Shown here in pieces: positions 5,051-51,058 of a DNA stretch of 64,000 nucleotides (the first letter of the stretch is position 1; the number at the start of each line of letters is the position of its first letter). Position numbers and translations under genes: made by a program. A model generated the notes under the pieces. It saw nothing but the letters and a program-made list of their open reading frames with translations. It did not search any database and was not told the DNA's origin. Origin of the DNA: Candidatus Binataceae bacterium (GTDB lineage: Bacteria; Desulfobacterota; Binatia; Binatales; Binataceae); the NCBI GenBank assembly GCA_963722605.1, contig CAVRNO010000002.1, forward strand, positions 548,090 through 612,089, written 5' to 3'.

Positions 5051-6154
5051 TTATTCGCGCTCCAGAACTTTCATCACTTTCGCCAGCTCCGGCTCGACCA
5101 CAATCGTGTTGCTCAAGTTCTTGAGCGCCGTGTCGGGATCCTTGAGGCCGTGTCCCGTGAGCGTGCATACGACGACCGAATCCGGCGGGAGCATCCCGGC
5201 ACCCGCGTATTTGAGCAGTCCGGCGACCGAGGCGGCCGAGGCCGGCTCGGCGAACACGCCGCCGCTTGCGATCAAGCGATAGGCCGCGAGTATCTCCTCG
5301 TCGGTTACGATGTCGATAATTCCGCCCGACTCGTCGCGCGCGGCGGTCGCGCTCTTCCAGCTCGCGGGATTGCCGATTTTGATCGCCGTCGCAATGGTAT
5401 GCGGATCCTCGATCGGATGGCCGACCACGATCGGCGCCGACTCGGCCGCCTGGTAGCCCATCATCTTCGGGGTACGCCCGCTCAATCCCTCCGACTTGTA
5501 TTGCCGGTAGCCCGCCCAGTAGGCGGTAATATTGCCGGCATTGCCGACCGGCAGGAAATGATGGGTGGGCGCATCGCGCAATTGATCGCAAATCTCGAAC
5601 GCCGCGGTTTTCTGCCCGGCGATTCGATCGGGATTGACGCTGTTGACCAGCCGAATCCGGACCGGGTCGCGCTCCGCAAGATCGCGCACCAGGTTGAGGC
5701 AGACGTCGAAGTTGCCGATCACCTCGAGCACGCGCGCGCCATGCATCACGCTTTGCGACAGTTTGCCCAGCGCCACCGCACCCTTGGGGATCAGCACGTA
5801 CGCCTTGAGCCCGGCGCGACCGGCGTATGCCGCGGCGGAGGCCGCGGTGTTGCCGGTCGAGGCGCAGATGACGGCACGCGCACCCTCGCCCAGCGCCTTG
5901 GACATCGCCAGCGTCATGCCGCGGTCCTTGAACGAGCCGGTCGGGTTGGCGCCCTCGAACTTAAAGTAAACCTTGATGTTCTGCCCGAGCCGCTTGGCCA
6001 GCGCGGGCACCTGGATAAGCGGCGTGTTGCCCTCGTTCAGGGTGACGACCGGGGTCGAATCCGACACCGGCAGGAAGCGGCGGTAATGCTCGATCAGTCC
6101 GGGCCAGTAAGACAACCGCTGCGGATTGGATCCGTGCCTGGATTCCGACGCCAT
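5051..6154 (-). CDS. thrC: threonine synthase
   Basis: PLP-lysine motif (FEGANPTGSFKDRGM) and whole-length ThrC similarity. Confidence 0.9.
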   Translation of the reverse strand: MASESRHGSNPQRLSYWPGLIEHYRRFLPVSDSTPVVTLNEGNTPLIQVPALAKRLGQNIKVYFKFEGANPTGSFKDRGMTLAMSKALGEGARAVICASTGNTAASAAAYAGRAGLKAYVLIPKGAVALGKLSQSVMHGARVLEVIGNFDVCLNLVRDLAERDPVRIRLVNSVNPDRIAGQKTAAFEICDQLRDAPTHHFLPVGNAGNITAYWAGYRQYKSEGLSGRTPKMMGYQAAESAPIVVGHPIEDPHTIATAIKIGNPASWKSATAARDESGGIIDIVTDEEILAAYRLIASGGVFAEPASAASVAGLLKYAGAGMLPPDSVVVCTLTGHGLKDPDTALKNLSNTIVVEPELAKVMKVLERE

Positions 6155-6156
6155 CG

Positions 6157-7479
6157 CTAAAGCTTCTCCTCGATTCGGATAAACGCGGGCGCCGAACCCA
6201 CGATTTTTTTCCTTCGAATCTCCGCCAGCGCGCGTTTGAGGCTGCGCTCGGGCGTGCCGTGGGTGCGCATGATCACCGGCACCGTGCGCTCGGCTTCGCG
6301 GCCCTTCTGAATCACCGACGCGATCGACAGCCCGTGCCTGCCCAGCACCGACGCGATGGCGCCGAGCACTCCGGGCTTATCGAGCGCCATGAAGCGCAGA
6401 TAATACTCGCATACCACGTCGTCCATCGGCTTTACACGGGCGCTCTTCATCAGGTGGATCGGGAATCCAAAGGCGTGCGGCCGCGCCGAGCCTTCGGCCA
6501 GACGGTGGCGCGCGATATCCAGTATGTCGGCCACGACCGCCGTCGCCGTGGGCATCTCGCCCGCGCCGAGCCCCGAATACATCGTCGCGCCGAGCGCGTC
6601 GCCGTGGATATAGATGGCATTGTACGCGCCGCCGACGCTGGCCAGCAGATGGCGTTGCGGGATCATCGTGGGATGCACGCGGGCCTCGATCGCGCCGTCA
6701 ACATCCTTGCCGATGGCGAGCAGTTTGATCGCATAGCCAAGCTCGCGCGCGTAGGCGATGTCGGCCTGGGTAATCCGGGTGATCCCTTCGGTATAAATAT
6801 CCGCCGGTTTCACCATCACGCCAAAGGCAAGCGTGACCAGCAGACAAAGTTTGTGGGCCGAATCATGCCCCTCGACATCGAGCGCGGGGTTTTGCTCGGC
6901 CAGGCCCTTGCGCTGCGCGTCGGCGAGCGCGTCGGCGAACTCGACGCCGTCCTCGGTCATGGTGGTGAGGATAGAATTGCAGGTGCCGTTGACGATTCCA
7001 TACGCCGAGCGCTGGCGGTCGCCGGCCAGCGCCTCACGCAGGGTGCGGATGATCGGCACGCCGCCGCCGACGCTGGCCTCGTAACCGACGGTGAGGCCGC
7101 GCTTCCCGGCCTCGCGAAAAATCTCGCCGCCATGCTCTGCGAGCAGAGCTTTGTTGGCGGTCACGACGTCCTTACCGGCCGCGAGAGCCTTCATGATCAG
7201 CGCGCGAGCGGGTTGGTGGCCGCCAAACAGCTCGACCACGATATCGATATCGGGACGCGTGACGACCGCGGCGGCGTCGGGGGTAATCGACTTGGCCGGC
7301 ACGCCAAGCGAAGCGGCGAGCTTGACCCTCAGATCCGCCACCACCGCCAACTCGACCGGCGCACCGAGCATCCGCTCGTATTTGTCGCGGTTGTGCAGCA
7401 GCAGCTTGATTACGCCGCCGCCCACGGTACCGCATCCGAGCACAGCAATCCGCACCGGTCTCGATTTGTTCGGTTTCAT
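6157..7479 (-). CDS. hom: homoserine dehydrogenase
   Basis: VRIAVLGCGTVGGGV NAD-binding fold and a C-terminal ACT domain. The ATG at 7479 (MKPNKSRP) is inside the long 863 aa ORF, whose N-terminal part is non-coding readthrough. Confidence 0.9.
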   Translation of the reverse strand: MKPNKSRPVRIAVLGCGTVGGGVIKLLLHNRDKYERMLGAPVELAVVADLRVKLAASLGVPAKSITPDAAAVVTRPDIDIVVELFGGHQPARALIMKALAAGKDVVTANKALLAEHGGEIFREAGKRGLTVGYEASVGGGVPIIRTLREALAGDRQRSAYGIVNGTCNSILTTMTEDGVEFADALADAQRKGLAEQNPALDVEGHDSAHKLCLLVTLAFGVMVKPADIYTEGITRITQADIAYARELGYAIKLLAIGKDVDGAIEARVHPTMIPQRHLLASVGGAYNAIYIHGDALGATMYSGLGAGEMPTATAVVADILDIARHRLAEGSARPHAFGFPIHLMKSARVKPMDDVVCEYYLRFMALDKPGVLGAIASVLGRHGLSIASVIQKGREAERTVPVIMRTHGTPERSLKRALAEIRRKKIVGSAPAFIRIEEKL

Positions 7480-7496: not shown

Positions 7497-8702
7497 TTAG
7501 GCGCTGGCCGTGCGCACCCTGATCTCGGCTTCGCCGATCCGGAGCGCCTGACGAATTCCCCGTAGCGCCTGGCGGGTGCGATGTTCGTTCTCGATAAGCG
7601 CGAAGCGCACGAACCCGTCGCCGTCCTGCCCGAAGCCGATTCCCGGCGACACCGCGATCTTGGCCTCGGCCAGCAGAAACTTCGCGAACTCGAGCGAACC
7701 CATCGCGCGAAACGGCTCCGGAATCGGCGCCCACACGAACATCGTCGCCTTGGGTTTCTCCACCGGCCAGCCAGCCCGGTTGAGCCCGTCCACCAGCACG
7801 TCGCGCCGGCGCTGGTAGCGGGCGACGATCTCGGCGACGCAGTCCTGCGGTCCGTTGAGCGCCGCGATCGCGGCGACCTGCACCGGCGCAAACATCCCGT
7901 AGTCGAAGTACGATTTCAGCCGCGCCAGCGCCGCGATCATCTCGCGATTGCCGACCGCGAAGCCCACCCGCCAGCCGGGCATGTTGTAGCTCTTGGACAG
8001 GGTGAAGAACTCGACGCCGACGTCCTTGGCGCCCGCCACCTGCATCATCGACGGCGCCTTGTAACCGTCGAAGCACAAGTCGGCGTAAGCAAAGTCGTGC
8101 GCGACCATGATGTCGTTCTCGCGCGCGAACTCGACCACCCGCTGCATGAAGTGCAGATCGACGGTCGCGGTGGTCGGGTTGTGGGGGAAGTTCATGATCA
8201 GGAACTTGGGCCGCGGCCAGCATCGCGTCACCGCCGCCATCAATTCGTCGAAGAATTCCTCTCCGCGCCGAATGGGAACGCCCTGCACCTGCGCGCCCGC
8301 GATGATGCATCCGTACTGATGAATCGGATAGGTGGGCGTGGGTGCGAGCACCACGTCGCCCTGGTCGAGAATCGCCAGCGTCAGGTGCGCGATCCCTTCC
8401 TTCGATCCGATTGTGACGATCGCTTCCGAATCGGGATCGAGATCGACGCCGTAGCGCCGCTTGTACCAATCGCAGATCGCAAGCCGCAGCTTGTACACGC
8501 CGCGCGAGACCGAGTAGCGATGGTTGGCGTTCTTGGAGGCCGCCTCGATCAGCTTGGCCACGATGTGCGGCGGGGTCGCTTCGTCGGGATTTCCCATCCC
8601 GAAATCGATTACGTCCTCGCCGGCCCGCCGCGCCTTCAGACACAATTCTCCGATCGCGTTGAACACGTAGGGTGGCAGCCGTTTTATTCTTGGGAAATCC
8701 AT
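7497..8702 (-). CDS. pyridoxal-phosphate-dependent aminotransferase class I/II (AlaA/AspC-like)
   Basis: [15 protein letters not shown]-terminus, [16 protein letters not shown]-lysine region. It sits directly upstream of hom-thrC on the same strand. Confidence 0.85.
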
Positions 8703-19602: not shown

Positions 19603-20403
19603 TGGAATATCGAATCACACCGGGCAGATTGGAAATCGGCGAGTTCTCGCTCTACTACGAGCGCGTCGGCGCCGGCCCGCCGATCGTCTTCATGCACGGG
19701 CTGGGCGGCAGCCATCTCTCATGGTGGCAGCAAGTGCCCTACTTCATGCGATCGTTCGAATGTATCACGGTTGACCAGCGCGGCTTCGGCCTTTCGCCCG
19801 ACCCCGACGGCCATTTCAATCGCGCGCATGCCGAGCGATCTCGCCGCCCTGCTCGACCATCTTAAGATCGATACGGCCGTGCTGGTCGGGCAATCGATGG
19901 GCGGATGGACGATCGCCGGCTACGCGCTCGAGCATCCCGAGCGCGTCGCGGCGATGGTGATGGCGGATACACCGGCGGGAATTTTCACGCCTGAGATGAC
20001 GTTCGAACGTCCGCGCGAACCGCTCGCCGTCGATGCGACGCCACCGATCGGGTCGCTGCCGACCTACGCCGCCGATTATTTTTCGCGGAGCCCCGAGATG
20101 GCGTTTCTGTACGACGAAATCCGGATTCATGGCGCGCGGCCTCCGGCCGACGCGGGCATGCGGCTAATCAGCCTGCGCTACGATCTGGACGCGGTGAAGC
20201 GACGCCTGACGATGCCGGTACTGTGCATGGTGGGCGAGGAGGACACGCTTATCAGGCCCCAGATCGTCAAGGCGCTGGCATCGGCGCTCCCGAATTCGCG
20301 ATTGCGCACGGTCCCCGGCAGCGGCCATTCGATCTATTTCGAGAAGGCCGCGGTCTTCAATCAACTGGTGCGCGATTTCCTCGTCGAGATCGGGCAGGGG
20401 TGA
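19603..20403 (+). CDS. alpha/beta hydrolase, apparent frameshift near 19818
   Basis: The N-terminus (MEYRITPG...FMHGLGGSHLSWWQQ) is in ORF 19503..19865. The remainder (GQSMGGW nucleophile elbow, ...PGSGHS) is in ORF 19564..20403. The stop TGA is the centre of a palindromic repeat. Confidence 0.65.
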   Translation, partial: WNIESHRADWKSASSRSTTSASAPARRSSSCTGWAAAISHGGSKCPTSCDRSNVSRLTSAASAFRPTPTAISIARMPSDLAALLDHLKIDTAVLVGQSMGGWTIAGYALEHPERVAAMVMADTPAGIFTPEMTFERPREPLAVDATPPIGSLPTYAADYFSRSPEMAFLYDEIRIHGARPPADAGMRLISLRYDLDAVKRRLTMPVLCMVGEEDTLIRPQIVKALASALPNSRLRTVPGSGHSIYFEKAAVFNQLVRDFLVEIGQG

Positions 20404-20458
20404 CCCCTGCACTCAGTATTAGGGCCGCGCTCCGTTGTCGCGCGCGGCCCCTGCCGCG
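20394..20458. repeat. REP/MITE-like nested palindromic element, copy A
   Basis: GCAGGGGTGACCCCTGC palindrome, then CAGTATTAGGGCCGCGC-TCCGTTGTC-GCGCGCGGCCCCTGCC. Shares core motifs with copies at 22993, 25290 and 54605. Confidence 0.7.
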
Positions 20459-23002: not shown

Positions 23003-23104
23003 CCCCTGGCCGTTGGCGGCGGCAGCGCAGTATTAAGCCGTTGGCAGGGGCCGCGCGCGACAACGGAGCGCGGCCCTAACGGTGGGTGCAGGGCTCAGCC
23101 CTGC
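22993..23104. repeat. REP/MITE-like composite palindromic element, copy B
   Basis: GCAGGGGTGACCCCTG core. It also has CAGTATTAAG, an inverted copy of the copy-A arm (GGCAGGGGCCGCGCGCGACAACGGAGCGCGGCCCTAA), and a terminal GTGCAGGGCTCAGCCCTGC palindrome. Confidence 0.7.
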
Positions 23105-23739
23105 TGCTGCTTGCGCTGGTACATCAGCCACTGCCTGACGCCCAAGGGGTAGAGCTCGCCCATGATTTCGTAGCCCTTGGAACTGTAGAACGCGACGTTG
23201 GCCTCGGTCCCGGTCTCGAGGTAAACGCCGGCTATCTCAGGCCGCACCAGTGCCTCCAGCGCGAGCCGGTCGAGCAACGCCTTTCCGTAGCCTTTGCCCT
23301 GAAAATCCGGATCGACCCCGAGGGTTTGCAGATACAGATGCGGCTCCTTGGGATGGTGCTGTGCAAGCACACCGACCATATTCATCGCGCGGACCATCCC
23401 GCCCCATCCGACTCCCCGAATCAACCGCGGCAACTGTGGCAGCCCGGCGGTGATCAACCCAAGCACGCCTGAATGGCCCACACCTTCGGTGGCCGCGGCG
23501 GCAACCACGCGTCCATTATGGACCACGCCGAAGACCGGCTGTCCGTTCCGACGCTCCACACCCAGCTGCGCGCGAAACATATCCGCCAGGTGCTCGGCGC
23601 GCGCGACCGGCTCGGTAATATCCGGAAGGATCGCCTTGAAGGCCGGGTCGTTGATGAAGGCGCGGCCGAGCGCGACGGCGGCCTGCTCGTGCTGCTCGGG
23701 GTACAGGCTGGTTACGATCGGTTTTCCATTTTCAGGCAT
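23095..23739 (-). CDS. GNAT family N-acetyltransferase
   Basis: Acetyl-CoA binding motif (LQTLGVDPDFQGKGYGKALL). The likely start is MPENGKPIV. It ends ...QQQG with the stop (TCA on +) at the centre of the GCAGGGCTCAGCCCTGC palindrome. Confidence 0.7.
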   Translation of the reverse strand: MPENGKPIVTSLYPEQHEQAAVALGRAFINDPAFKAILPDITEPVARAEHLADMFRAQLGVERRNGQPVFGVVHNGRVVAAAATEGVGHSGVLGLITAGLPQLPRLIRGVGWGGMVRAMNMVGVLAQHHPKEPHLYLQTLGVDPDFQGKGYGKALLDRLALEALVRPEIAGVYLETGTEANVAFYSSKGYEIMGELYPLGVRQWLMYQRKQQQG

Positions 23740-25261: not shown

Positions 25262-25289
25262 CGTCGTATTCTCCCGCGCCAATGTTACA

Positions 25290-25367
25290 GCAGGGGTGAC
25301 CCCTGCACCCAGTATTAAGGCCGCCCGCCGTTGGCGGGCGCGACCCCTGCCAACGGTTTAATACTGC
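25290..25367. repeat. REP/MITE-like palindromic element, copy C
   Basis: GCAGGGGTGACCCCTGCACCCAGTATTAAGG...CCCCTGCCAACGGTTTAATACTG. The CAGTATTAA / TTAATACTG arms are inverted. It lies in the divergent glpK/gshA intergenic region. Confidence 0.7.
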
Positions 25368-25482
25368 GCCGCCGTCGCTCACGGCCCCCCCGCCCGCCTT
25401 GTGCTTGCCTCGTATGTTTGCTGACGCCATTATACCCGCTTGGCGGAGCCTCTTCTCAGGCAGTCGCGCTTGGCTTTGATTC

Positions 25483-43458: not shown

Positions 43459-44785
43459 TTCTATTCCGCCGTCCCCGCGTTTCATCTGCCGCGCCGATTC
43501 GCAGTTCCATCGCGCGCGCATGGCCCTCGAACCCTTCCATCCGCGCCAGATGCGCCACCGCCGGTCCGAGCGCCGCAATCGCGCCCTTCGACGCCTCGAT
43601 TATACTGGTTCGTTTCAGGAAATCGTATGCACCCAAAGGCGACGCGAAACGCGCCGCGCCCCCGGTCGGCAGAACGTGATTGGGGCCCGCAAGGTAGTCG
43701 CCGAGCGGCGCCGGCGTGAGCGGGCCGAGGAAAACCGCGCCCGCCGCCTTGACCTTCGGCACCCATCGCGACGGATTGCGCACCTCGAGCTCGAGATGCT
43801 CCGGGCCTATCTGGTTGGCCAGGTCGAAGGCCTCGTTCAGATCGCGAACGATAACCATGGCGCCCCGTCGGACCAGTGCATTCTCGGCCTGGCGGGCGCG
43901 CGGCAGGCTTTTGAGCGCGACTTCCACCGCCTCGGCGACGCGATGCGCGATGCTCGCCGACGTCGTCAGCAGCATCGCCGTTTCGTCGCCGGAACCATGC
44001 TCCGCCTGCGCGATCAGGTCGGCGGCGATCCATTCGGGACGCGCGCGGTCGTCGGCGATCACCAGCACCTCGCTCGGCCCCGCCATCTTGTCGATATCCG
44101 CAACGCCATAGACCATCCGCTTGGCCGCCTGTACGAATGCGTTGCCGGGACCAACGATCTTGTCCACCGGCTTGATGCTTTTGGTCCCGTATGCGAGCGC
44201 TGCGACCGCCTGCGCTCCTCCGACGCGGTAGAATTCGTCGACGCCGGCAATTTCCGCAGCCGCAAGCACAGCCAGCCGCTCGCCATCCGCCGACGGCGGC
44301 GAGACCATCACGATTTCGGCGACGCCGGCGACCTTGGCGGGAATCGCATTCATCAGCACCGTCGACGGATACGCGCCGAGCCCGCCGGGCACATAAATCC
44401 CCACCCGGCGCATCGGTTGCACCATCTGGCCGAGCCGCATCCCGCAGTTGTCGCGATAGATGAACGATTTCTCCATCGTGCGGCGATGGAAATCGGCGAT
44501 TCGCCGCGCCGCCAGCTCCAGTGCGCTGCGATCTTCAGCCGCGATTCGCTTGAGCGCCGATCGGCGCTCAGCCGGCGTCACCCGGAGCGTGGCCGGGGTA
44601 AGCTTCACCCGGTCAAATTTGGCCGTCAGATCGATAAGCGCGCGATCGCCGCGCTTTCGCACGTCGGCAATAATCTTCGACACGGCCCGGTCGATTCCGG
44701 CGCCGTCGCCGCCTCGGCGCGCGAGTATCGCGGCCAGAAATTTTCTGAACTCCGCCGTCTGAGACTTAAGCACCCGGGGCCGCAT
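43418..44785 (-). CDS. hisD: histidinol dehydrogenase
   Basis: HisD signature (IVGPGNAFVQAAKRMVYG, AQAEHGSGDE). The C-terminal tail overlaps the hisB start, so the exact stop is uncertain. Confidence 0.85.
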   Translation of the reverse strand: MRPRVLKSQTAEFRKFLAAILARRGGDGAGIDRAVSKIIADVRKRGDRALIDLTAKFDRVKLTPATLRVTPAERRSALKRIAAEDRSALELAARRIADFHRRTMEKSFIYRDNCGMRLGQMVQPMRRVGIYVPGGLGAYPSTVLMNAIPAKVAGVAEIVMVSPPSADGERLAVLAAAEIAGVDEFYRVGGAQAVAALAYGTKSIKPVDKIVGPGNAFVQAAKRMVYGVADIDKMAGPSEVLVIADDRARPEWIAADLIAQAEHGSGDETAMLLTTSASIAHRVAEAVEVALKSLPRARQAENALVRRGAMVIVRDLNEAFDLANQIGPEHLELEVRNPSRWVPKVKAAGAVFLGPLTPAPLGDYLAGPNHVLPTGGAARFASPLGAYDFLKRTSIIEASKGAIAALGPAVAHLARMEGFEGHARAMELRIGAADETRGRRNRNAKQTQTQHPKSG

Positions 44786-44816
44786 GCGGTTTCATCCCTC
44801 TAAATTGACTTGCGAT

Positions 44817-46073
44817 TTATTCCTGGGCGCGCTCGATGCGCGCGCCGAGATGCTTGAGCTTGGCGTCGAGCGCCTCGTAGCCGCGGTCCAGATGATAGAT
44901 GCGGCTGAGCTCGGTCGAGTTTTCCGCGGCCAGGCCCGCGATTATCAAGCCCATGCTGGCGCGCAGATCGGTCGCCATCACCGGAGCGCCGCTCAGCTTC
45001 GACGGCCCGCGGACCACGGCGGTGGGACCTTTCATCACTATGTCGGCGCCCAGGCGCGCCAGTTCCTGGGCGTGCATGAATCGATTTTCAAAAATCGTCT
45101 CGGTGATGACGGAGGTACCGCCGGCCTGCGTCAGCATCGCCATCATCTGCGCCTGAAGATCGGTCGGAAACCCCGGGTACGGCAGCGTGCGCAGCTCGAC
45201 CGACTTGAGTTTATCGCCGCGCGTGACGCGGATGCCCTTGCCGACCGCCTCGACCACGACGCCCGCCTCGCCGAGCTTGGCCACGACCGCGTCCAGATGC
45301 TCGATCGGGGCGTTTGAAATCGTAACGTCGCCGCCGGTGATCGCCGCCGCCGCCATCATCGAGCCCGCCTCGATTCTGTCGGCTATCACTTCGTGCTCGG
45401 CGCCATGGAGGCGCTCGACGCCCTCGATTTCCAATACGTGCGTGCCGGCGCCGCTGATTTTCGCGCCCATCTTGACCAGCACTCGCGCGAGATCCTGCAC
45501 CTCGGGCTCGCGCGCGGCGTTTTCGATCACGGTGCGGCCGCGGGCGGTGACCGCCGCCATCAGAATGTTCTCGGTTGCGCCGACCGAGGGAATATCAAGC
45601 CAGATCCGCCCGCCGGACAGTTTTTCGGCGTGCGCCTCGACGTAACCGTGGCGAAACTGGATCTTGCTTCCGAGCGCGCGAATCCCCGAGATGTGCAAAT
45701 TCACCGGCCGCGCCCCGATCGCGCATCCACCCGGAGTCGAAACGCGCGCGCGTCCGGTGCGCGCCAGCAACGGGCCGAGCACGACGAACGACGCGCGCAT
45801 CGTCTTGACCAGTTCGTACGACGCCTCGTTCGAGGTAATTTTTGCGGCGCAAAGCTCGACGCTATGCTCCCCGGTCCAGCGCGCCGCGACGCCGAGCTGG
45901 GACAGAAGCGCGATCGCGGTTTTCACGTCGCGCAGCCGCGGAACGTTGGTGAGATGCAGCGGTTCCGGCGTCAGGATCGACGCCATCATGATCGGCAGCG
46001 CGGCGTTCTTGCTGCCACTGAGCGTGACGGTGCCGCGCAGCGGAACGCCCCCATGAATTATCATTTTCTCCAT
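44817..46073 (-). CDS. murA: UDP-N-acetylglucosamine 1-carboxyvinyltransferase
   Basis: Full-length MurA similarity (IHGGVPLRGTVTLSGSKNAALP, active-site C in TPGGCAIGARPV). The ATG at 46073 is preferred over the TTG at 46079. Confidence 0.9.
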   Translation of the reverse strand: MEKMIIHGGVPLRGTVTLSGSKNAALPIMMASILTPEPLHLTNVPRLRDVKTAIALLSQLGVAARWTGEHSVELCAAKITSNEASYELVKTMRASFVVLGPLLARTGRARVSTPGGCAIGARPVNLHISGIRALGSKIQFRHGYVEAHAEKLSGGRIWLDIPSVGATENILMAAVTARGRTVIENAAREPEVQDLARVLVKMGAKISGAGTHVLEIEGVERLHGAEHEVIADRIEAGSMMAAAAITGGDVTISNAPIEHLDAVVAKLGEAGVVVEAVGKGIRVTRGDKLKSVELRTLPYPGFPTDLQAQMMAMLTQAGGTSVITETIFENRFMHAQELARLGADIVMKGPTAVVRGPSKLSGAPVMATDLRASMGLIIAGLAAENSTELSRIYHLDRGYEALDAKLKHLGARIERAQE

Positions 46074-46079
46074 CGCCAA

Positions 46080-46250
46080 CTACGCCCCGCTTCTTCGCGC
46101 GCGCACGACGCGCGGATGCCCCGCGAGACCGTTTATCACAGAGACGGCCCGCAAGCCCGCTTCCTCGAACAGCTTCGCCACCGCCGCCCCCTGCCCCACC
46201 CCCATTTCCACGATCAGCTCGCCATCGCGCGCAAGGATATCGACGCTCAT
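46080..46250 (-). pseudogene. duplicated remnant of the prmC 3' end (56-codon ORF with its own ATG)
   Basis: 46093..46236 is a near-copy of 47071..47218, with ~4 substitutions plus a divergent ~30 bp stretch that has an 11 bp indel. It translates to ...GELIVEMGVGQGAAVAKLFEEAGLRAVSVINGLAGHPRVVRARRSGA*, and the stop abuts murA. Confidence 0.5.
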
Positions 46251-46251
46251 T

Positions 46252-47052
46252 CTACGGGTGGATTGCGGGCAAACTCATTCCGTGAGCATCAATATGAACT
46301 GTCCGAATGATCGAAAGCAGTGGGAACTTTCCGTCGTGCGGCGGCGGAACAGATTCAGCGTAGTCACTTCCCCCCATGCCCGTGGAAATCCTGCAGGGGC
46401 GAGGCTGCAATATGTTTATCGCCCAGTGCCATGCCGCGCGGCCACAGTCGATCCGCAGCAGAGCCTCATGCCCGTCTAACTGCATGGGGCTGAGCGACGA
46501 GCAGACGGGGCGGCCTGTCTCCGGGGCAGTCTTAATTTCATCTTCGTGAAGTCGCGACTGAAATTCAAACGCCTTCTTGATTTTCTCGGCCGCCACTTCT
46601 GGAGTCGTGCTCTCACTATGGACGAGAACCCGCAGCACGAGCTCGCCCTGGGTGACCGGAGTGTCACCGACCAGATCGACTACCTTGGCCAAGTCTGACG
46701 GCGGATTGTCGAGACCGAAGGGATCCAAGACAGCAGGAGTCCGGAACTCTCTCTCGTTCACCCGCAGCGACGGCGGGTAACGAAATGAAAGCCCTGTGGC
46801 TGGGTCGTGGAACTCTCGCCAACCACTTGTGCCGATCCGCGCCTGTTCGGTGGGAACCGCAGCCGGCATCGCGGTCGCCGCGACCATCTCCAGCGGTTCT
46901 GGGCCCGCGTCAAACCGGATGCCCGTCGGGCCGGGGTATAAGATCAATGCGGCTGGGCGTTCAGCCGCTTCGACTTGCTGCGGACCATTGCACAGTGCCG
47001 CACAAATGGCGATGCAGAGAAAGAAAGCGGCGGATGTGTGTCCAAATATCAT
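46252..47052 (-). CDS. hypothetical secreted protein (266 aa) inserted between prmC and its duplicated 3' end
   Basis: Signal peptide (FFLCIAICAALC). No recognised domain. The 3' part is lower in GC. Confidence 0.5.
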   Translation of the reverse strand: MIFGHTSAAFFLCIAICAALCNGPQQVEAAERPAALILYPGPTGIRFDAGPEPLEMVAATAMPAAVPTEQARIGTSGWREFHDPATGLSFRYPPSLRVNEREFRTPAVLDPFGLDNPPSDLAKVVDLVGDTPVTQGELVLRVLVHSESTTPEVAAEKIKKAFEFQSRLHEDEIKTAPETGRPVCSSLSPMQLDGHEALLRIDCGRAAWHWAINILQPRPCRISTGMGGSDYAESVPPPHDGKFPLLSIIRTVHIDAHGMSLPAIHP

Positions 47053-47063
47053 TGCTTTCGTAC

Positions 47064-47942
47064 TTAAACCCTTCGCGCGCGCACGACGCGCGGATGCCCC
47101 GCGAGATCGTTTATCACAGAGACGACCCGCAAGCCCGCTTCCTCGATCAGCTTCGCCACCGCCGCTTTCGTTGCATCCCCCTCCCCCACTTCCACGATCA
47201 GCTCGCCATCGCTCGCAAGATGCCGCGGCGCGCCCGCTGCAATTCTGCGAAAGATGTCGAGCCCTCCCGCTCCCGCGCTCAGCGCAACGCGCGGCTCGAA
47301 GGCGCGCACCTCGGGTTCCAGCGCGGCGATCTCCGCGTCATCCAGGTAAGGCGGATTGGAGACTATCAGCTCGAAAGACTCAAGCGCCGCTCCGCCGTCC
47401 AGGACGTCGAAGCAGTCGGCGCGCCGGAACGTCACCCGATCCTCGACCCGATGCCGCCGCGCGTTGCGCGACGCGATCGCAATCGCGCCGGCGGAAATTT
47501 CCACTGCCGTCACGCGAACGCGCCGAGCGTTGACCGCGATTGCGATAGCGATTGCCCCCGACCCGGTGCCGATGTCGAGCACGCGCGCGTCCGGCGCTCC
47601 GGCGATAAACTTGAGCGCCGCGTCAACGACTAGCTCGGTCTCGGGCCGCGGAATCAGGACCGCCGGACTTACCTCGAAATCGAGCGAGTAGAATTCCTTG
47701 CACCCCAGGATGTACGCGACCGGCTCGCGTTTTTCGCGCCGCACGATCATCGTCTCGAATTTGTCTAGCGTCGCGGGCGATAGATCGATCGAACCCGTGA
47801 TAGCGGCTTCGCGCGAGACTCCCGCCGCCGCGGCAATCAGAAGTTCAGCGTCGAGCCGCGCCGATTCGATGCCGCTTGCGGCGAGCCTGCGCGCGGCCTT
47901 GTCTATCTCCTCCAACGCGCGCCGCGCGGGCACCCGGTTCAT
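47064..47942 (-). CDS. prmC: release factor glutamine N5-methyltransferase
   Basis: HemK/PrmC motifs (VLDIGTGSGAIAIAIA, IVSNPPY). It immediately follows prfA. Confidence 0.85.
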   Translation of the reverse strand: MNRVPARRALEEIDKAARRLAASGIESARLDAELLIAAAAGVSREAAITGSIDLSPATLDKFETMIVRREKREPVAYILGCKEFYSLDFEVSPAVLIPRPETELVVDAALKFIAGAPDARVLDIGTGSGAIAIAIAVNARRVRVTAVEISAGAIAIASRNARRHRVEDRVTFRRADCFDVLDGGAALESFELIVSNPPYLDDAEIAALEPEVRAFEPRVALSAGAGGLDIFRRIAAGAPRHLASDGELIVEVGEGDATKAAVAKLIEEAGLRVVSVINDLAGHPRVVRARRV

Positions 47943-47949
47943 GGCGATG

Positions 47950-49011
47950 CTACGCGCTGAGCGCCTGCTCCTGATCGTAGGCCGCCAGCGCGTCGATAAT
48001 CGGATCGATTTCGCCGTCGAGAAACTTGTCGAGCTGATGAATCGTCACGTTGACGCGATGGTCGGTCACGCGCGATTGCGGAAAATTGTAGGTGCGGATG
48101 CGCTCGGAACGGTCGCCCGTACCCACCATCGAACGCCGCGTCTGCGCGATCTTCGCCTGCTGCTCCGACTGCGCCGCCTCGAGCAGCCGAGCCCGCAGGA
48201 TCTTCAACGCCTTCGCTTTGTTCTTGTGCTGCGACTTTTCGTCGCGTTGGATTATCACCATGCCGCTCGGGATATGCGTGATGCGCACCGCCGAGTCGGT
48301 GGTATTGACGCTCTGGCCGCCCGGTCCCGACGCGCGCATCACGTCGATTCGCAGGTCCTTGGCTTCGTTGATATTGACCTCGACCTCGTCCGCCTCGGGC
48401 ATCACCGCGACGGTGACCGCGGAGGTGTGGATGCGCCCCGAGCCTTCGGTTTCAGGTACGCGCTGCACGCGATGCACCCCGCCTTCGTACTTGAGCCGCG
48501 AGTATGCGCCGCGTCCGCTCACCAGCGCGATCACTTCCTTGATTCCGCCAAGCCCGGTCTCGCTCAGGCTGAGCGACTCGATCTTGAACCCGTGGCGCTC
48601 GGCGTAGCGCGTGTACATCCGATACAGGTCCCCGGCAAACAGCGAGGCCTCCTCGCCGCCGGTTCCGGCGCGGATTTCGAGGATCACGTTCTTTTCGTCG
48701 TTGGGATCGCGCGGCGTGAGCAGCTCCTTGAGTTTGTCCTCGACCGCGGCAAGATTTTTCTGCAACGCCGGCATCTCGGCCTTGGCCAGCTCGCGCAAGT
48801 CGGCGTCGTCGCCATCGAGGATCGACTTGTGGCCCGCGATCTCGTCGGCGATGCGGATATATTCGCGGGCGCAATGCGCCGCCTCGGAAAGCTGCGCGCG
48901 CTCTTTGGCCAGCCGGGCGTATTCGCGCTGATTGCCGAGCGTGGCCGGATCGCTGAGCTTGCGCTCCAGCTCCGCCACCCGCTCTTCTATCGCGCTTGCC
49001 TTATCCAGCAT
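47950..49011 (-). CDS. prfA: peptide chain release factor 1
   Basis: GGQ motif (RASGPGGQSVN), PxT-region, full-length RF1 similarity. Confidence 0.9.
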   Translation of the reverse strand: MLDKASAIEERVAELERKLSDPATLGNQREYARLAKERAQLSEAAHCAREYIRIADEIAGHKSILDGDDADLRELAKAEMPALQKNLAAVEDKLKELLTPRDPNDEKNVILEIRAGTGGEEASLFAGDLYRMYTRYAERHGFKIESLSLSETGLGGIKEVIALVSGRGAYSRLKYEGGVHRVQRVPETEGSGRIHTSAVTVAVMPEADEVEVNINEAKDLRIDVMRASGPGGQSVNTTDSAVRITHIPSGMVIIQRDEKSQHKNKAKALKILRARLLEAAQSEQQAKIAQTRRSMVGTGDRSERIRTYNFPQSRVTDHRVNVTIHQLDKFLDGEIDPIIDALAAYDQEQALSA

Positions 49012-49192
49012 CGGATTCTTTGCACGCTTGTACTCATCTGGGCGTTAGTCTGTACGTTCGCGTGGCAGTGAGAAGGATCGCCTGGGCGAAATGGGGCAAC
49101 GGTAGTGGAAAGTCCCTGAAAAAGCCGTGCCGGTAGATTCTCCCCCGCGCACCCGGGTGCGTAGCGCACCGCAGGCGGCGGGAGTTGCTATG

Positions 49193-49432
49193 CTACTTCT
49201 CGGCGGCGGTTGCCGCCGTCTTTTCCGCCGGCTTCTTGATGCCGTACTTGCGATTAAACCGCTCGACCCGCCCCGCGGTATCGACCAGGCGCTGCGTGCC
49301 GGTGTAAAAGGGGTGACACTTCGAGCAGACCTCGACCTGCAACTGCTTGAGCGTCGAGCGCGTTTCGAAGGTGTTGCCGCACGCACAGACGACTGTGCAG
49401 CGACGGTATTCAGGATGGATTCCAGCTTTCAT
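49193..49432 (-). CDS. rpmE: 50S ribosomal protein L31
   Basis: MKAGIHPEY start, CxxC...CxxCH zinc ribbon (CACG...[10 protein letters not shown]). Confidence 0.85.
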
Positions 49433-49459
49433 TTTTGCTTCTCGAACTCTGTTTCCTCT

Positions 49460-51058
49460 TGCGTCAGAGGATACCATCGGGAGCTATCGCACACAATTCG
49501 CGCGCCGCGACCGCCCTTTCGGGCTTTTCGGCTCGCAATCGCCGTGGCTGCCTCGACTGCGGTTATTTTAATCACAATATTCCCGATTGCCAGCTTCGCC
49601 GCGCCAGCCGCCACGGCTGCGCCAACGACCGGCTTCGCGCCCGATGATCGAACGCTTTTCGCGCCGATCGTCGATCTCGCGCCGCCCGGCCCCGCGCGCG
49701 CGTCGCGTGCGATCGCAATCCTGAACCGGCAGCTCGATTTCCAGCGCAAGATCTCGTTCCACCCCACGCTTGCCCCGGCGCTCCAGGATGTCCTCGATCT
49801 GCTTCCGCCGCGCCAATCGACGATGATCCGCGCCGCCGCCCTCTACTCGAAACCGTCGATCCCGTGGCGCGACGAGCCGGACGGTACGCATCAGATTTGC
49901 GTCGCCGGACGGCCAAGTGACGGCGAGTATTTGTACACGCTGTCCCCCGGCTGGGATCGGCCGGAGGAGCCCGCGCAATTTTCGGGCGTGTTCGGCCTCA
50001 AGCCCGGCGCCGATTCCTCTCCCACCGACATTTCGAGCGTCACCGGCACGCTCGCCGGCGAGCTGATGATCGATACCTACGGTCTCGGCGGGCTGGTTGA
50101 CGCCGCGGCCGATGCGATCCGCGAGGTTCACGGCGATCTGAGACCGCCGTGGGATTCTTCGCCCGGCGCATTCAACCATCACGACCGAGCCGCGCTCGAC
50201 AAATTCCACCGCCAGATGCCGCATCTTGCGGCGAAGTTCGACCACTACTTCAAATTCAACAACCTGCTCGACGAGTTCAATTCGCCCGCGGGCCCCGTCG
50301 TGCTGCTGAACGTCGATGCCGAAGTTCGCCAGGACGCGCTCAGGAAATATCCGTTGCTGTACGATTTCTATCGCAAAGTCGTACCCGCGGTGACGGCGAA
50401 ATCCGCTATCCTGGATTCGCACGGAAATTTCTGGGTGCGCGAGGGCTTCGACCACGGCCGCATCCACTTCACCATGATGATTCGGGGCGGACTGCTCACG
50501 CCGTTCAACGCCGCGATGCAACCGGCCGGCGACGGTATTGCGCTCAATCGAATCGCGCGCGGCGGTTACCGGACGTTGTCGTCGGCGCAGGTGACCAGTC
50601 TCGCGATGAATTTCGGGCTGGCCAACGTTGGATTTGCAACCGACTACCGCCGCGACCCGGGCTCGGTGACGTTCGTCAACCGGATGGACGCGGTCCCCCA
50701 AATGATCGCGCCACCCGGCGTGCATCAGGTGATGGACTTGATCGCGGGGGACTTTCTGCGCGCGCTGGCTACCGAAAGCGGCGGCATGAACGTAAGCCTC
50801 AGCTCGCGGATGCTCCCCAGCGGGATGTACGATTTCTCGGGCGGCGTCACCGCGCAGTTGAATTACTCGCCCGCGCTGGAGTTGCTCGCGCGAATCGGCG
50901 ATGCGATCGCGAACAGGCACAACGACCAGGTTCGCGCCGAGGAACGCGCATTCGGCGAGGAACTGTTCGACGCCTTCGTCGCCGATTACAATGATGCGCG
51001 TGGGGCAATTGTCGCCCTGGATTCGGATAAAGACAGCCGACAGGAAAAATCCAAATGA
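49460..51058 (+). CDS. hypothetical secreted protein (~530 aa)
   Basis: Signal-peptide-like segment ([29 protein letters not shown]). No recognised domain. The start is uncertain; the ORF opens at 49127, but its upstream part overlaps rpmE. Confidence 0.5.

Follow-up and report, generated by a model that had tools for sequence, protein, structure and literature searches.

How a gene for a small secreted protein comes to lie between two housekeeping genes, with the end of one of them on either side, is the question raised by a locus on contig CAVRNO010000002.1 (assembly GCA_963722605.1) of an uncultured soil bacterium, Candidatus Binatus/Binataceae, represented by a metagenome-assembled genome. 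The window analysed here, in whose coordinates all features are given, is the 64,000-nt stretch at positions 548,090 to 612,089 of that contig, and sequence is the sole type of evidence used. On its minus strand follow one another prfA, prmC, an open reading frame (ORF) of 266 codons (ORF266), a short remnant ORF and murA. The end of prmC is present twice, once in place as the functional 3′ end of the gene (copy R1, 47071–47219, 149 nt) and once downstream of ORF266, ahead of murA (copy R2, 46093–46235, 143 nt). Our results indicate that the locus is probably a scar left when alternative alleles recombined at a polymorphic site, together with a domain swap in the cargo gene that lies between the repeats. 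It is neither the footprint of a transposon nor a new kind of element, and the process is one that is already known.

Alternative states of the prmC|murA junction

In 26 of the 27 related Binatus/Binataceae species-representative genomes, prmC is followed by murA within 0–60 nt, and the arrangement found in the window is therefore an insertion. To this extent the earlier note, made from the window alone, was right to describe a duplicative insertion into the prfA–prmC–murA array. The other half of that description does not hold, as R1 and R2 are not one sequence duplicated in place (see below).

The insert-free junction is the state of most genomes, and a second state is found in some. In the related locus L024, a complete gene of ~190 aa, here called Y, lies between prmC and murA without any duplication, and the order prmC–Y–murA without a repeat is found in five assemblies (L024, L086, L087, L088 and L092). 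In these Y loci, PrmC ends in ...RARRV* and the gene is followed by an 11-nt spacer, the same as with R1 in the window. The prmC|murA junction of Binatus populations has at least two states, insert-free and Y-bearing. Relatives with the arrangement of the window but without repeats had been named beforehand as a finding that would speak against a duplicative insertion. Such relatives exist in part, in that a gene does occupy the site without a repeat, but this gene is Y and not ORF266. The presence of Y at the site without a repeat speaks for allelic recombination rather than for a target duplication of the transposition type.

A three-part mosaic carrying a chimeric gene

Read along the minus strand, the locus is a mosaic of three parts, for which both alleles and breakpoints are identified. 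The first part, from 48000 to 46908, comprises prmC, R1, the spacer and codons 1–48 of ORF266, and is colinear at 85–87% with the Y-bearing L086, L087 and L088. Within it, the segment 47053–47070 consists of the Y-allele-type prmC tail (G GTT TAA) and the 11-nt spacer ahead of the ORF266 start; it is homologous to the prmC–Y junctions of L024, L086 and L087, and the C-terminus of the window PrmC matches the PrmC of L086 and L087. The second part, from 46908 to 46253, is colinear at 87.7% with a gene of another family, X, as it occurs in L035 in another context (BON–X–DUF4168–MFS). The third part, from 46235 to 44800, comes after a 16-nt filler and is colinear with the insert-free prmC–murA junction.

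ORF266 (46252–47052, 801 nt, 266 aa) has no match in Pfam. As colinearity switches from one family to the other at 46908, ORF266 is an in-frame chimera, composed of the signal peptide and first residues of Y (codons 1–48, 46909–47052) and of an X-family core, a secreted PsbP/Mog1-like domain (codons 49–266 and the stop, 46252–46908), with the breakpoint at 46908/46909. The 801-bp ORF for a signal-peptide protein that the earlier note placed between the repeats is thereby confirmed, with homologues under purifying selection (see below), and what does not survive is the idea of a single inserted gene. The lower G+C content that it ascribed to part of the insert is also found: values of 0.565–0.61 are obtained in 200-nt windows over 46200–46799, versus 0.63–0.69 in most flanking windows. 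Proteins P0064 and P0066 have only the N-terminus of ORF266 in common with it, and other X genes display two further N-terminal types. Between X copies of different N-terminal types, homology is limited to the ORF and ends at the stop codon.

In the third part, the homology of the relatives begins at 46235 and continues into murA. Colinearity with the insert-free junction of L001 and L002 extends over R2, a 13-nt tail (AAGCGGGGCGTAG) and murA, with 91% identity to L002 over 334 nt, and in the junction alignment of 26 relatives the conserved murA start context (GCGATGGAGAAAATG) stands directly after the ancestral prmC stop. R2 represents a prmC 3′ end that is of the insert-free haplotype and has been displaced. 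At the joint between X and R2, the X stop is followed by the 16-nt filler (46236–46251, AATGAGCGTCGATATC), as read off the window itself, and then by prmC codon ~244, without extended homology. The filler gives its ATG to the remnant ORF (46080–46250, 56 aa), which continues through R2 into the ancestral tail ...RRSGA* and matches the PrmC model TIGR03534 at positions 207–252 of 253. The downstream copy had been described as carrying an ATG and a stop that abuts murA, and as resembling the ancestral prmC terminus. The position of the stop and the ancestral terminus are borne out by the colinearity with L001 and L002, whereas the ATG lies in the filler and not in duplicated sequence.

Two natural alleles of the prmC 3′ end

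When the 900 nt upstream and the 900 nt downstream of ORF266 are compared by BLAST, the repetition of the prmC 3′ end upstream of murA, as first noticed, is recovered as a direct repeat with 89.3% identity over 149 columns (E = 2e-54). A REP-like (repetitive extragenic palindromic) element elsewhere aside, it is the only long direct repeat of the 64-kb window. R1 and R2 align as two gapless matching blocks, one of 95 nt with 97% identity and one of 42 nt with 93%, and the short patch between them holds a 6-nt in-frame indel (start-to-start spacing of 978 versus 984). In total, the copies differ by 10 mismatches and this 6-nt indel, which replaces the initial count of ~4 substitutions and an 11-bp indel.

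The differences between the copies correspond to differences between relatives. At alignment positions 44–55, which contain three substitutions and the 6-nt indel, R1, with its 6-nt AACGAA haplotype, is identical to the haplotype of L005/L087/L088, and R2 carries the haplotype of L001–L004. In overall identity, R1 is nearest to L005–L007 (92.6–94.6%) and R2 to L002–L004 (90–92%), and the tails are RRV* in R1, of the Y-allele type, and RRSGA* in R2, of the insert-free type. R1 and R2 are different natural prmC alleles and, as both haplotypes pre-exist in relatives, the repeat is not a simple duplication that has diverged in place.

An in-place origin would have it that a gene was inserted with a target duplication of ~145 nt, or that a tandem duplication trapped filler sequence, the copies then diverging in situ and perhaps undergoing later allelic recombination. 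Its topology would be that observed, a direct duplication around an insert, and the replacement changes of R2 described below would fit a decaying copy; furthermore, if homologous recombination had later passed over R1 or R2, the outcome could look like two alleles. We nevertheless regard such an origin as unlikely, since the 6-nt indel and the three linked substitutions exactly reproduce two natural haplotypes that already existed, and an established allele in which nothing is duplicated is colinear with the R1 tail, the spacer and ORF codons 1–48. Nor does the locus show a transposase, terminal inverted repeats or a fixed duplication length, the repeat being of 143–149 nt here versus 186 nt at hisG (see below).

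R1 keeps prmC intact, and R2 is a slowly decaying copy. With codon effects taken from the protein alignment, 4–5 derived states are unique to R2, at sites where 11 relatives do not vary, and each of them replaces an amino acid; R1 has two unique derived changes at such sites. Among the changes of R2 is that from VIND to VING, in a motif that is invariant in every aligned relative. Segment-wise identity to relatives did not separate the resident from the incoming copy, the genome being about equidistant from L001–L008. The haplotype difference could date either from the event that joined the alleles or from a later allelic recombination over one copy.

Two classes of elements were considered for the repeat and rejected. 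A transposable element with target-site duplication does not agree with the absence of a transposase domain in ORF266 and of inverted repeats at the insert ends, nor with a duplication that was not short, fixed or identical at birth and that, at 143–149 nt, is far beyond transposase target duplications. A diversity-generating retroelement was rejected in the absence of a reverse transcriptase and because the mismatches are not specific to A, only 5 out of 10 being at A in R1 and 0 at A in R2.

Recurrence of the joints in independent assemblies

The sequence from 47070 to 46199 of the window is found at 90% in L028, a 3.66-Mb long-read contig, and in L029, an independent short-read Logan contig, both from other samples. 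The stretch has the prmC-tail/spacer segment 47053–47070 as its left end crosses the Y48|X joint and the filler, and extends 38 nt into R2. It stands there at an unrelated site, beside a DDE transposase. As they are common to the window and to L028/L029, the joints are biological and older than that split (synonymous divergence, dS, of ~0.20 in the X core). The L028 copy may result from the relocation, mediated by an insertion sequence (IS), of a fragment from a locus like that of the window.

In L028 (4651–7095), a DDE transposase of 445 aa (DDE_Tnp_1_4) precedes, by 230 nt, a copy of the complete Y::X gene to which 38 nt of prmC are attached. This copy has ACG in place of its ATG, and the ORF called for it begins further upstream and comes to 346 aa.

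These contigs bear directly on the possibility, raised in the earlier note, that the locus is an assembly artefact. Strain variants, or an L028-like X copy and a native prmC–murA junction, would in that case have been mis-joined via prmC-derived sequence. The window does belong to a metagenome-assembled genome, examined here as assembled sequence; the exact ORF266 protein has one record only (P0001), its exact look-up in the collection being without match, and an X copy with 38 nt of prmC sequence, such as that of L028, could in principle mislead a graph assembler. However, both the Y48|X and the X–filler|R2 junctions are present at 90% in independent assemblies of other samples, and in the contig of P0003, the closest type-A homologue, an ORF ends 11 nt ahead of the X start, which is the spacing found after the window prmC. 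The X–R2 junction is non-homologous and contains a 16-nt filler, unlike the homologous overlaps at which assemblers mis-join, and R2 has substitutions of its own. Finally, the contig that encodes the 100%-identical protein P0001 is 2.05 Mb long, and an analogous structure at hisG is found in three assemblies. We therefore consider an artefact to be highly improbable.

A second case at hisG

In three assemblies (L030, L031 and L032), the gene order is hisG, X, a 186-nt copy of the hisG 3′ end and a glyoxalase gene. An uninterrupted hisI–hisG–glyoxalase array is found in L089, from which both hisG copies are about equally distant. The copies differ at 23 codons, with 22 silent differences (stop codon counted) versus 1 replacement, and both have therefore evolved within working hisG genes and were joined recently. 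This ratio is impossible to obtain by decay of a non-functional copy, which is a further point against the in-place origin considered above. As judged from the hisG scar, alleles of core-gene arrays that bear inserts seem to serve repeatedly as substrates for sloppy recombination.

Among 42 X loci with usable flanks, a true target duplication is present only in the window and in L030–L032, and flanking duplication as a general feature of X loci is rejected on these counts. A 62-nt repeat that flanks X in L037 was examined as a third case and was also rejected, as it is a dispersed repeat, present in L033, in L038 and at a third site of L037.

This dispersed repeat, of ~55–60 nt (TCGCAAATCTCAAGCCCGCG...GCAGTGCCGCG), occurs with type-C X genes at L037:5881–5942, 6737–6798 and 7789–7831, at L033:6749–6804 and at L038:1376–1428; in L037 it flanks X, near a large serine recombinase and small phage-like ORFs. 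Another direct repeat, of 61 nt at 98%, is found at L050:3101–3161 and 5175–5235, and identically in L052. It brackets ~2 kb that hold a distant X homologue and an IS200-like (Y1_Tnp) ORF. In the spacer after the displaced hisG copy, at L030:7098–7230, there is an inverted-repeat element (GTCATTCTGAGCGGAGGCCGCCGTAGCGAAGAATC ... GATCCTTCGCTGCGCTCAGGATGAC) that is absent from L089 and resembles a small insertion of the REP type or a miniature inverted-repeat transposable element (MITE).

How the alleles could have been joined

The preferred reading, a scar of recombination between alleles, can be broken down into steps. In the window lineage, the body of Y would first have been exchanged, in frame from codon 49 onwards, for the core of the unrelated secreted-protein gene X. 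Insert-bearing and insert-free alleles would then have been joined by two crossovers, one of them homologous and located in a flanking core gene, prmC or murA, and the other an illegitimate joint that would have fused the sequence 16 nt past the X stop to prmC codon ~244. As this joint would lie upstream of the prmC end, the last ~145 nt of prmC would be present twice. The process could be homology-facilitated illegitimate recombination (HFIR) or, equivalently, the single-crossover, Campbell-type integration of a circularised fragment. We infer this type of recombination and reconstruct the order of the events, and the homologous anchor could have been in either prmC or murA.

Several properties of the locus are those of HFIR or Campbell-type products. 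A direct duplication of the anchor segment flanks the insert, and its downstream copy is colinear with the insert-free junction. One junction is without extended homology, and donor and recipient are distinguishable alleles of one locus, of the L005/L087/L088 type for R1 and of the L001–L004 type for R2. No transposase, integrase, reverse transcriptase or terminal inverted repeat is found between or at the repeats, and the duplication lengths differ, with 143–149 nt at prmC versus 186 nt at hisG.

HFIR, or insertion-duplication, has been described by de Vries and Wackernagel (2002) and Prudhomme et al. (2002), as cited in PMC5361080. As in those systems, one homologous anchor and one non-homologous joint are found here, a direct duplication of part of the anchor flanks the foreign segment, and divergent alleles are joined. 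In E. coli, the single-crossover integration of circular DNA with one homologous segment gives duplications of the homologous locus of 109–950 bp (PMC3240628), a range in which the 143–186 nt observed here fall. The difference is that the present case is a natural, fixed event in an essential operon of an uncultured phylum, read from sequence alone, and that it is accompanied by an in-frame domain swap in the cargo. A model of the HFIR type has likewise been put forward for arrays made up of displaced 3′ ends and of orphan immunity genes (PMC5361080).

The layout of the locus is also reminiscent of icd–e14–icdC in E. coli K-12, in which a prophage sits in the 3′ end of a housekeeping gene and supplies a replacement 3′ end (Hill et al., 1989, as reported in PMC13626634). 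The window locus could accordingly be viewed as the remnant of a site-specific integrative element at the prmC 3′ end, with an integrase provided in trans as for cis-mobilisable elements (CIME-like). In both cases, the inserted DNA contains, on one side, the alternative or foreign 3′ end of an intact gene and is followed, on the other, by a pseudogene of the displaced C-terminus (PMC13626634). In the window, the replacement 3′ end keeps PrmC intact through R1 and R2 is the displaced, decaying copy; the largely silent differences between the hisG copies are likewise shared with icd. Moreover, a prophage-like region of L037 has an X homologue at a distance of 600 nt from a large serine recombinase, and the X homologue of L033 follows a tRNA cluster. 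This origin is distinctly unlikely, however. Whereas e14 is a 15-kb prophage with an integrase and an att core, the insert here is of 0.83 kb and ORF266, which has no recombinase domain, is the sole ORF of more than 73 aa between the repeats; no integrase is found between R1 and R2, and one could have acted only in trans. The left end of the supposed element is the resident Y allele. The targets prmC and hisG, at which one cargo family is found, are unrelated and differ in the length of the duplication, and each would need an att specificity of its own. Most X loci are without flanking repeats, and the repeat of L037 is dispersed and not an att duplication. The long identical stretches in R1 and R2 are diagnostic neither for nor against an att core. 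No second locus like that of the window was recovered, and the only other copy, in L028, is at an unrelated site with 38 nt of the repeat.

Some points weigh against a scar of recombination between alleles as the origin of the locus. No intermediate has been found, neither a prmC–Y::X–murA locus without R2 nor an X–filler–R2 stretch beside a type-B N-terminus. In-place duplication, with subsequent allelic homologous recombination over one copy, could be another route to the different haplotypes of R1 and R2. There are 4–5 changes in R2 versus the ~14 expected under neutral drift, as calculated from the dS of 0.20 between the X of the window and that of L028, and this shortfall suggests either occasional refreshment of R2 by recombination or gene conversion, or some constraint on it. 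Natural competence, or another route of DNA uptake, would have to be assumed for Binatia, and the window's own contig is supported at the level of assembly. Finally, the two duplications share their cargo family, and each is of the upstream gene's 3′ end, which could hint at a process more specific than random sloppy recombination. It is conceivable, though very doubtful, that X spreads by a dedicated, integrase-free route, in which the 3′ end of the upstream housekeeping gene would serve as a built-in homology arm (for instance in a circle of ~1 kb carrying the repeat and X), each insertion recreating a partial duplication of the core gene and the remnant ORF being kept open for translational coupling into murA.

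Recombination between alleles of a polymorphic junction, as preferred here, leaves the general understanding of recombination unchanged. It provides a natural example, from an uncultured soil phylum, of how accessory genes become wired into essential operons. Two gene families alternate at the prmC|murA junction, and a signal peptide is reused by an unrelated domain via in-frame fusion. The partial core-gene duplicate left by a one-sided homologous exchange is a scar that can be dated.

The cargo families X and Y

X is a small family, with 66 matches in a search of 5.8 billion proteins; among 1.84 billion cluster representatives, 395 are matched at E ≤ 1e-3 and 32 at E ≤ 1e-30. Its named members are from Binatia and Terriglobia. 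The ratio of non-synonymous to synonymous divergence (dN/dS) is 0.2–0.45 for X, comparable to that of prmC, showing that X is under purifying selection. It is therefore a functional cargo, of a kind that selection could keep. Scans of X and Y with Pfam, NCBIfam, PHROGs and PADLOC give no family, and the viral contigs scanned for X contain no relatives. Both proteins are predicted to have DcrB/DUF1795/PsbP/Mog1-like folds, with identities to the fold matches of at most 13% for X and 15% for Y, and comparison of their profiles detects no homology between them (hhalign probability of 1.9%). From its PsbP/Mog1/DcrB-like fold model, X may be a binding protein or an immunity-type protein.

X behaves as a mobile accessory gene. 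It is found after tRNA genes, beside an IS, beside a large serine recombinase, next to MFS transporters and after hisG. In the X loci with readable flanks there is no toxin neighbour, the neighbours including MFS transporters, BON, tRNAs, IS and hisG. The likeness of X to TplEi and Tsi3 is at the fold level only, and a role of X as immunity protein of a polymorphic toxin is a weak lead.

MFS transporter genes repeatedly adjoin X homologues, both distant and close (L054:3–662, L056:1697–3016 and L035:2221–3525), with X 10 nt downstream in two of them. This adjacency could reflect a functional link.

As for Y, L090 (15–5324; ENA ERZ25039501, contig_22000) encodes an Rhs-repeat protein with a Cys-rich C-terminal tip, and 40 nt beyond this tip a Y homologue begins. 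Behind Y comes an orphan Rhs tip, in which the junction motif GKPxFCGxPxWCGxKPL is repeated. In this one locus, Y is in the position of an immunity gene, downstream of a toxin domain. The arrangement suggests that L090 is a Binatus toxin/immunity array and that Y could be an Rhs immunity protein, present also as an orphan between prmC and murA. Arrays of orphan tips and immunity genes are known from Rhs, contact-dependent inhibition (CDI) and type VI secretion system (T6SS) loci (PMC5361080). They have in common with the present locus that repeated 3′-end fragments are left downstream of a module brought in by recombination, and that the genes involved encode small, fast-moving secreted or periplasmic proteins; Y itself sits in such an array in L090. 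They differ in that the gene duplicated here is a housekeeping methyltransferase and not a toxin, and in that X has no toxin neighbour in the loci examined.

Gene organisation and expression of the locus

The operon begins with prfA (47950–49011), encoding peptide chain release factor 1 (PCRF, E 2.8e-72; RF-1, E 4.1e-40), with 94–97% amino-acid identity to relatives. It is directly upstream of prmC (47064–47942), which is intact and encodes a release-factor N5-glutamine methyltransferase of 292 aa ending in ...RARRV*, with the PrmC_N and methyltransferase (MTS) domains and, in the translation, SNPPYL, which contains the NPPY motif. After the insert comes murA (44817–46079), for UDP-N-acetylglucosamine 1-carboxyvinyltransferase (EPSP_synthase domain, E 5e-105).

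The genes are tightly spaced, with 11 nt between the prmC stop and the X start, 1 nt between the X stop and the remnant ATG, and a remnant stop that abuts the murA start. Given this spacing, co-transcription of ORF266 with prfA–prmC–murA is most likely. Its product is most likely exported to the periplasm. A scan for regulatory signals over 44500–49500 finds no sigma-70-like promoter. It returns 7 terminator-like sites, versus 4.0 ± 2.1 expected from shuffles; three of the seven are within ORF266, one of these being on the coding strand (46968–46949).

From 46254 to 46080, stops and starts form a chain made of the X stop TAG, one base, the remnant ATG, the remnant stop TAG and the murA start. 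The displaced prmC fragment may still hand ribosomes to murA via translational coupling.

For annotation, the 56-aa ORF is a pseudogene fragment of prmC and ORF266 is a chimera. Short methyltransferase-like or HisG_C-like ORFs beside small secreted-protein genes can flag similar events elsewhere.

Outside the locus, the window contains a GC-rich element of 62–99 nt in three copies (20394–20455, 23008–23106 and 25288–25386), 84–90% identical, one of them inverted. It has internal palindromes and looks like an intergenic repeat of the REP/MITE type.

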